DNA from: Escherichia coli
GTDB taxonomy: Bacteria > Pseudomonadota > Gammaproteobacteria > Enterobacterales > Enterobacteriaceae
Reading direction: 5' to 3' (one strand)
DNA length: 53,280 nt
Assembly: GCF_003334815.1 (NCBI RefSeq)
Contig: NZ_QOWO01000028.1
Position 1 is the stretch's first letter, and each line of letters opens with the position of its first letter. This document shows, one piece after another, positions 662 to 941 of the stretch. The position numbers and the translations under genes were made by a program. The notes below the pieces were generated by a model. It was not told where the DNA came from, searched no databases, and saw nothing but the letters and a program-made list of their open reading frames with translations.

Positions 662-820
662 AGTGTATTACCTTTAATAATTAAGTGTGCCTTTCGGCGA
701 TATGGCGTGCTTTACAGATTTTGAAGCGTTAAAGGAATGTGCACTACGAGGGGTATCAACGATAACTCTTGAAGGGACTTGCCTTACTACACTGCTTTAA
801 TGGTCTGTACGTCAAACCGT
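662..820 (-). promoter_or_regulatory. cspA long 5' UTR (cold-responsive leader, about 159 nt)
   Basis: Established knowledge that cspA mRNA has a roughly 159-nt leader acting as an RNA thermosensor; coordinates are inferred from the ATG position, with an AT-rich promoter/UP region beyond it. TSS not determined from sequence. Confidence 0.5.
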
Positions 821-941
821 TGATGTGCATTAAGCCACGCATTGGCGGGTGATGCAACAATTATTTTTCATATTTATGATTAATCGGTTGGAAAACGGTC
901 CTGTCATCAGGACCGTAAACAGCAATAAAGTGGATAAAAGT

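Follow-up and report, generated by a model that had tools for sequence, protein, structure and literature searches.

Nucleotide placement of the promoter elements and the RNA thermosensor leader of cspA in an Escherichia coli contig

The window, that is, the whole stretch of 53,280 nucleotides of Escherichia coli DNA analyzed here, carries close to its beginning the cold-shock gene cspA and, on the same strand, its upstream neighbor yiaG (Table 1). In a sequence comparison, the first 1000 bases of the window were 100% identical to the genome of strain MG1655 (NC_000913.3). The window is the reverse strand of E. coli K-12, with window position w corresponding to NC_000913.3 position 3720710 - w; coordinates with the prefix w refer to the window throughout. 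The A of the cspA start codon is w661, so that the range w662-900, which the initial annotation had described as the cspA leader together with AT-rich upstream DNA, begins one base upstream of the coding sequence. The exact CspA ORF, the match to the Rfam model and the AT-rich block discussed below all agree with that description. Its extent holds from w662 to about w884, which is the cspA control region proper, but not for the upper ~16 bases: w885-900 comprise the U-tail and the 3' arm of the yiaG hairpin and lie outside the cspA control region. Small ORFs of 31-53 amino acids that overlap w662-900 on either strand were dismissed, given that none of them is annotated in MG1655 and that they sit within the conserved non-coding leader.

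Of 5426 complete E. coli genomes, 5423 carry a single, chromosomal copy of a 581-base query covering the region, with an identity to the query of at least 99% in 4557 genomes and of only 95-99% in 866 of the 5423. The cspA leader nevertheless varies within E. coli: in SCPM-O-B-8794 (L021:5026-5212), it differs from that of K-12 by small indels and by a C-to-T change adjoining the upstream box. In 12 listed RefSeq E. coli records, the cspA locus (w449-661, minus strand) bears the name [quoted passage not shown], apparently an artefact of how the annotation pipeline names genes, the locus being b3556. On the other side of cspA, the left end of IS150 (w1-77) adjoins the hokA/mokA toxin locus (hokA, w110-262, plus strand), and the small gene ysaE (w239-310, minus strand) overlaps hokA on the opposite strand. 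Elsewhere in the window, there are gathering-level Rfam matches to the tRNA proK (w12018-12091, plus strand), to naRNA4 (w12188-12267, minus strand), to ES036 (w14503-14545, minus strand) and to rdlD, the antitoxin RNA in the ldrD/rdlD pair (w20341-20406, minus strand).

Table 1. Features of the cspA control region and its neighborhood in window coordinates, with the mean identities of 42 aligned sequences to that of the window
Feature	Position	Strand	Description	Mean identity
yiaG	w1232..942	-	neighbor on the cspA strand, 280 nt upstream of cspA	
yiaG terminator hairpin (putative)	w916-895	-	perfect 9-bp stem, 4-nt loop, then UUUU (w894-891)	
AT-rich UP-element region (putative)	w884-858	-	directly upstream of -35; 88.9% A+T	0.48 (whole block)
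A-tract AAAAATAA	w868-861	-	conserved core of the AT-rich block (its 3' part)	
-35 hexamer TTGCAT	w857-852	-	3/6 against TTGACA, read from the sequence	0.88
Promoter spacer, 17 nt	w851-835	-	between -35 and -10; last three bases TGg	0.42
Extended -10 TGn (TGg)	w837-835	-	TG one base upstream of the -10 hexamer	
-10 hexamer CTTAAT	w834-829	-	4/6 against TATAAT; ends 8-9 nt upstream of w820/821	0.85
cspA transcription start	w820/821	-	159-nt UTR gives w820 (NC_000913.3 3719890); 160-nt UTR gives w821 (3719889)	
cspA 5' untranslated leader	w662..820	-	5' part of the cspA mRNA thermosensor; RF01766	0.82
5' hairpin GGUUUG-ACGUA-CAGACC, 6 bp	w818-802	-	carries the cold box; Rfam consensus and 37 °C MFE	
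Cold box TGACGTACAGA, 11 bases	w814-804	-	exact match; +7..+17 if +1 = w820	
Anti-SD segment CCUUUAA	w735-729	-	predicted to pair with UUAAAGG (w677-671) at 37 °C, occluding the SD	
Distal partner of the cold-box region	w718-704	-	predicted low-temperature fold, ViennaRNA	
Upstream box GCCGAAAGGCACA	w698-686	-	unique exact match in the window; +123..+135; contains the GCC-GAAA-GGC tetraloop hairpin	0.91
Shine-Dalgarno AAGG	w674-671	-	9 nt upstream of the ATG (w661-659)	
cspA coding sequence	w661..449	-	exact 70-aa CspA ORF; annotated as b3556 in NC_000913.3	0.84 (third codon positions)
Downstream box AUGACUGGUAUCGU, codons 5-9	w649-636	-	outside the range 662-900; same control system	
cspA intrinsic terminator	w397..424	-	12-bp stem and T run; also the 3' end of the Rfam model	

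The Rfam family RF01766 (cspA thermoregulator) matches w821..394 over 428 of the 428 model positions, with a score of 500.8 bits (E = 1.4e-142; curated gathering score, 78 bits) and no gaps in the printed alignment, and the match recurs at 500.8 bits when the whole window is scanned. Position 1 of the model aligns to w821. The published length of the cspA 5'UTR is 160 nt, within a full mRNA of 428 nt, in the work of the Giuliodori/Gualerzi group (PMC6386945, PMC9947658), and 159 nt in the passages of two other papers that cite Tanabe et al. 1992 (10.1101/2021.03.08.434349; PMC13370968). An ambiguity of one nucleotide is expected because the start is spread over adjacent nucleotides, a high-throughput genome-wide study of 5' ends having reported one preferred cspA start and three adjacent ones (PMC2760140). 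For the paralogs, the start of the Rfam model lies 156, 161 and 146 nt upstream of the start codons of cspG, cspB and cspI, respectively, compared with published UTR lengths of 156, 161 and 145 nt (10.1101/2021.03.08.434349); the two are equal for cspB and cspG and 1 nt apart for cspI.

From the secondary citations, the Rfam match and our own reading of the sequence, we place the cspA transcription start at w820/821. The initial annotation had guessed a start near position 820 and had expected a mapped start within about 20 bp of it; the distance is at most 1 nt. The long cold-sensing 5'UTR that it had predicted upstream of cspA is borne out by a leader of 159/160 nt and by the 500.8-bit match. 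No coordinate for the cspA start was found in the Cappable-seq supplement, and the supplement of Mendoza-Vargas et al. 2009 contains only minor “new” cspA 5' ends, at -91 (w752; 1 read) and +41 (w620; 8 reads) relative to the ATG. Each of these has a predicted -10 in that study, and they are more likely to be processing or decay intermediates of the very unstable cspA mRNA than products of separate promoters.

The -35 and -10 elements, which the initial annotation had not identified with confidence, can now be placed from the sequence as TTGCAT and CTTAAT, separated by a spacer that ends in the TG of a putative extended -10 (Table 1). If +1 is w820, the -10 hexamer occupies -14..-9, a distance from the start that exceeds the usual one by 1-2 nt. 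On the two strands of the 53-kb window taken together, there is a single occurrence of the composite motif TTGC-N16-TG-NN-TTAAT (w857-829, minus strand), against 0.11 expected from shuffles. A consensus promoter scan returned no match on the cspA strand in the intergenic spacer, the hexamers falling below the scan thresholds because only three of the six -35 positions fit the consensus and the -10 has no A at position 2. This is a limit of the consensus scan rather than evidence against the promoter.

Directly upstream of the -35, the block w884-858 stands out by composition, in a window with 51.9% G+C: equally AT-rich 27-mers make up 0.05% of the window. Adjoining the -35 as it does, the block is a putative UP element, as the initial annotation had anticipated when it mentioned such an element upstream of cspA. 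It matches the full UP consensus at 9 of the 14 specified positions in the proper register and, at the position of the proximal subsite (w869-861, GAAAAATAA), at six of the eight specified positions. That the UP element and the extended -10 are required for cspA transcription is stated in the titles of Mitta et al. 1997 and Phadtare & Severinov 2005, and the UP-element requirement is likewise given in 10.1101/289264. The TGn motif has been described in the promoters driving cspA, cspB, cspG and cspI (10.1101/2021.03.08.434349, citing Phadtare & Severinov 2005), and a 133-bp cspA promoter fragment binds the RNA polymerase holoenzyme and drives GFP expression, the cspA promoter yielding GFP at 37 °C as well as at 15 °C (10.1101/2021.03.08.434349). 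Compensation of a weak core by the TGn and the UP element is both what can be read at this locus and what the literature reports. The Y-box core CCAAT also occurs in the promoter spacer (w846-842, minus strand). We rejected it as a Y-box/CspA site: among the listed genera, it is found in Escherichia only and is not conserved, the sequence being CCAAT in E. coli and E. whittamii and CCGAT in E. albertii.

Upstream of the AT-rich block, the putative terminator hairpin lies 26 nt after the yiaG stop codon, with a folding energy of -15.5 kcal/mol (z = -3.76) and 1 of 200 shuffles equally stable. The GGACCGTTTT of this hairpin is conserved in the orthologs from Citrobacter, Salmonella, Raoultella and Intestinirhabdus. 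A consensus terminator scan missed the hairpin because its tail has only four T residues. Probably, the hairpin is the intrinsic terminator of yiaG and would insulate the cspA promoter from transcription of that gene.

To assess conservation, we scanned one genome per species with a pattern of the cold-box hairpin, which yielded 120 loci, many of which are chance matches in unrelated phyla. The 41 loci (of the 120) with an ORF of the CspA family 149-176 nt downstream of the match were kept. These come from 11 genera (Escherichia, Salmonella, Citrobacter, Kluyvera, Enterobacter, Raoultella, Intestinirhabdus, Cedecea, Buttiauxella, Serratia and Rouxiella) and were aligned together with the window, resulting in 42 sequences in which identities were measured against the window sequence. 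The conservation of +4..+20 is an ascertainment artefact, the orthologs having been picked by the cold-box pattern. In the promoter, the TTGC of the -35 is (nearly) invariant in the 42 orthologous sequences, the TG of the extended -10 is invariant in 42 of 42 and also in cspB, cspG and cspI, and the columns of the A-tract are 70-100% identical, compared with ~50% in the flanks. The mean identity is 0.51 in the DNA further upstream. Judged from this alignment, the -35, the TG, the -10 and the A-tract form conserved islands amid divergent spacer and upstream DNA across the 11 genera. In the orthologs, the AT-rich segment has a mean A+T content of 0.67, against 0.53 further upstream, and in the other genera the block retains its composition rather than its sequence.

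Within the leader and the start of the coding region, the AAAGG of the Shine-Dalgarno (SD) sequence is (nearly) invariant in the orthologs, and the downstream-box sequence AAAATGACTGGT is invariant in orthologs and paralogs alike. The segment w698-686 is the upstream box, a name that, like the +123..+135 numbering, reportedly comes from Yamanaka et al. 1999. The GCC-GAAA-GGC hairpin that it contains is 100% pairable in the orthologs. The cold-box sequence, against which the initial annotation had proposed to check the leader, is present as an exact match. It is reportedly the target of negative feedback by the CspA-family proteins CspA and CspE (Jiang et al. 1996; Bae et al. 1997/1999). A 6-bp stem-loop at the cspA mRNA's 5' end has been described as containing the cold box (PMC9411577), which corresponds to the 5' hairpin of Table 1. 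There are two further copies with one mismatch, one of them (TGACGCACAGA; w1140-1150, minus strand) on the coding strand within yiaG, upstream of the cold box by ~330 nt, and the other at w11138-11148 (minus strand). Including the true site, the window thus holds three matches with at most one mismatch, against 0.48 expected, and the extra copies are probably due to chance.

In terms of thermodynamic stability, the leader is unremarkable: for the 187-nt segment comprising the UTR and the following 27 nt, the MFE is -35.9 kcal/mol, the same as the mean of the shuffles (z = 0.02), so that there is no excess stability. RNAalifold applied to the ortholog alignment returned only 16 pairs, 0 of them with a compensatory change. 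When the Rfam 37 °C structure is projected onto the 42-sequence alignment, 85.8% of the cells are paired, compared with 33-47% in slid controls; such a high percentage is to be expected of an E. coli structure applied to closely related sequences. The number of double-change pairs on the Rfam structure is 17, against a shuffle mean of 16.8, that is, without an excess of covariation, and the predicted cold structure likewise has essentially no covariation beyond that of the shuffles, a result that speaks neither for nor against the two structures.

Folding with ViennaRNA at 37 °C predicts that the cold-box hairpin forms and that the SD is paired with CCUUUAA, as it also is in the Rfam consensus structure, with a probability of 0.02 that the SD is unpaired. 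For the 187-nt fragment at 10-20 °C, UACAGA of the cold box (w809-804) is predicted to pair with UCUGUA (w718-713), and w709-704 with w813-818, and the SD opens. The midpoint of this in silico switch of the 187-nt fragment is at ~25 °C, and the probability that the SD is unpaired rises from 0.02 to 0.32. These predictions for the E. coli leader agree qualitatively with the published picture of the cold and 37 °C forms, in which the cold box is part of the 6-bp stem-loop at 37 °C and, at 10 °C, has as its pairing partner a sequence far downstream (PMC9411577). However, the predicted switch of the 187-nt fragment conflicts with the published probing of that very fragment: the 137- and 187-nt fragments are unchanged with temperature and resemble the cold form. 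In the full 428-nt mRNA, folding predicts no equilibrium switch with temperature. When temperature scans of folding were run by genus (11 tested), the predicted switch showed up for E. coli and E. albertii, with a weak one for Serratia, and was absent in 8 of the 11 genera. Our own structure evidence is weak, and the thermosensor mechanism rests on the published probing and on the Rfam match. Because the equilibrium switch is neither general nor predicted in the full mRNA and conflicts with the published probing, the thermosensor is best taken as a fold that is trapped co-transcriptionally, as published, and our equilibrium calculation is no more than suggestive.

Across 37 distinct sequences from the orthologous loci, the three helices of the cold fold are 97-99.5% pairable, the search pattern having fixed the 5' side only, and both partners of the cold box, the local and the distal one, are 97-100% pairable in the 37 distinct sequences, without compensatory changes. 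These figures could be taken to mean that the cold box is a conserved two-state toggle in Enterobacterales, such that both the local hairpin and the distal partner (UCUGUA and CACGCC, w718-704) would be under selection and, in E. coli, the initial ~187 nt by themselves would act as an equilibrium switch at ~25 °C. We consider this proposal improbable. Should it be true, thermosensing would be partly thermodynamic instead of being a purely kinetic co-transcriptional trap. The alternative pairing of the cold box as such has already been described for E. coli (PMC9411577).

Almost certainly, the best explanation of the region is that it contains the known sigma-70 promoter of cspA, with its TGn and putative UP elements, followed by the 159/160-nt leader, which functions as an RNA thermosensor jointly with the first codons. 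Both the cspA promoter and the leader are already known in detail. What was established here is the gene identity, the coordinates, the sequences of the elements and their conservation, and what is taken from publications is the thermosensing, the stabilization of the mRNA and the effects on translation. Under this explanation, the weak core hexamers (TTGCAT, 17-nt spacer, CTTAAT; 7/12 consensus positions) would be strengthened by two accessory elements, namely, the TG of the extended -10 and the AT-rich UP element, which would contact the C-terminal domains of the RNA polymerase alpha subunits. Transcription would start at w820/821 and produce a leader that, with the first codons, serves as the thermosensor. 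At 37 °C, the fold of the mRNA would partly occlude the SD and the AUG, and the message would be degraded within seconds. On a shift to the cold, the cspA mRNA would be stabilized ~100-fold, and the transcripts newly made in the cold would adopt the “cold” fold, in which the 5'UTR folds on its own, apart from the coding region, with an accessible initiation region. Such accessibility would allow translation of CspA while bulk translation is blocked. The cold box would toggle between the local 6-bp hairpin and the pairing with a distal segment of the leader. As published, the cold structure is confined to temperatures below ~20 °C, is efficient in recruiting 30S subunits and can be translated at 15 °C by ordinary extracts, whereas the 37 °C structure, with the SD and AUG partly occluded, requires cold-shock factors, notably CspA itself.

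The leader might, alternatively, be chiefly a determinant of stability, attacked by RNases at 37 °C and shielded from them in the cold, with a secondary role as a thermosensor of translation initiation. The ~100-fold stabilization upon cold shift is the largest single reported effect, a review (PMC9411577) credits the cold form's long tandem stems with protection from degradation, and our folding analysis, in which the stability of the leader is ordinary, yields no equilibrium switch of SD accessibility that would be robust and conserved. [quoted passage not shown] The stability and translation mechanisms are not exclusive, the question being one of weighting, and the explanation that we prefer, a promoter followed by a thermosensor leader, takes in both.

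It is much harder to defend the possibility that cold induction is mainly transcriptional, with the AT-rich DNA and the promoter activated by cold and the leader being a passive spacer. The accessory elements, that is, the UP region and the TGn, are indeed unusual and conserved in all cold-inducible paralogs, and transcription of cspA is higher in the cold, but only up to about three-fold (10.1101/289264). Against this stands the published change in the half-life of the cspA mRNA, which becomes ~100-fold longer, from ~12 s at 37 °C to ~20 min on cold shift (also in 10.1101/289264), as well as the GFP expression driven by the cspA promoter not only at 15 °C but also at 37 °C (10.1101/2021.03.08.434349) and the identity of 0.82 in the leader, compared with 0.42-0.51 in the promoter DNA outside the elements. 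We therefore see very little room for a purely passive leader. Finally, that the AT-rich block and the hexamers are chance features of the spacer, with cspA in reality transcribed by read-through from yiaG, which is located on the cspA strand 280 nt upstream (the consensus scan finds no promoter in the spacer, and the hexamers reach only 7/12), is barely credible in view of the strong hairpin with its U-run after yiaG, the composite motif that is unique in the window against 0.11 expected, the promoter elements kept as islands across 11 genera, the 133-bp fragment that binds the holoenzyme and drives GFP (10.1101/2021.03.08.434349), and the published 428-nt cspA mRNA with a defined 5' end (PMC6386945, PMC9947658).

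The present results matter as annotation only, giving the promoter elements and the motifs of the leader their exact positions in the window, and nothing found here alters the established picture of the cspA leader. An important model in its own right, the cspA leader is the paradigm among cold-inducible RNA thermosensors, and the pCold expression vectors build on it. The initial annotation placed this textbook regulatory region by its sequence alone, at most 1 nt from the mapped start. Two cautions follow from the analysis: generic scans for promoter consensus miss the very strong cspA promoter, and generic statistics of stability and covariation are blind to an RNA switch, that of cspA, which has been established experimentally.

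Among known systems, RF01766 (E. coli cspA mRNA; Giuliodori et al. 2010) is the same element, with nothing different, except that the model spans the transcript only (w821-394), leaving the promoter and the UP region (w829-884) outside. The closest relatives are the paralogs cspB, cspG and cspI, which pass the gathering score of RF01766 with 113-159 bits and share with cspA the long 5'UTR, the A-tract with the TTGC of the -35 (AAAATAA-TTGC), the TGnNTTAAT, the GGTTTGA at the start of the cold box and the AAAATGACTGGT of the downstream box. In the upstream box, GCCGAAAGGC is conserved in cspB and cspG, and GCCCAAGGGC in cspI. The paralogs differ from cspA in that the mean column identity over promoter and leader is only ~69%, and in the -10, which is GTTAAT in cspB, cspG and cspI, as it is in other genera, but CTTAAT in cspA; furthermore, cspI, unlike cspA, is without most of the cold box in the alignment, and cspB and cspI sit in the Qin prophage.

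Similarly to UP-element promoters of the rrnB P1 type (Estrem/Gourse consensus, NNAAAWWTWTTTTNNNAAANNN), cspA is AT-rich directly upstream of the -35, with an A-tract at the proximal subsite; in contrast to such promoters, the cspA block fits the full consensus at only 9/14 positions, and its contact with the alpha C-terminal domain is putative. The heat-type thermometers ROSE and fourU are, like the cspA leader, cis-acting mRNA leaders in which a temperature-dependent structure gates access to the SD and AUG. However, ROSE and fourU are short hairpins that melt on warming and thereby turn translation on, whereas the cspA leader is long and works in the opposite direction, with more translation in the cold, and, unlike these thermometers, involves the coding region, alternative, kinetically trapped folds and stabilization of the mRNA.
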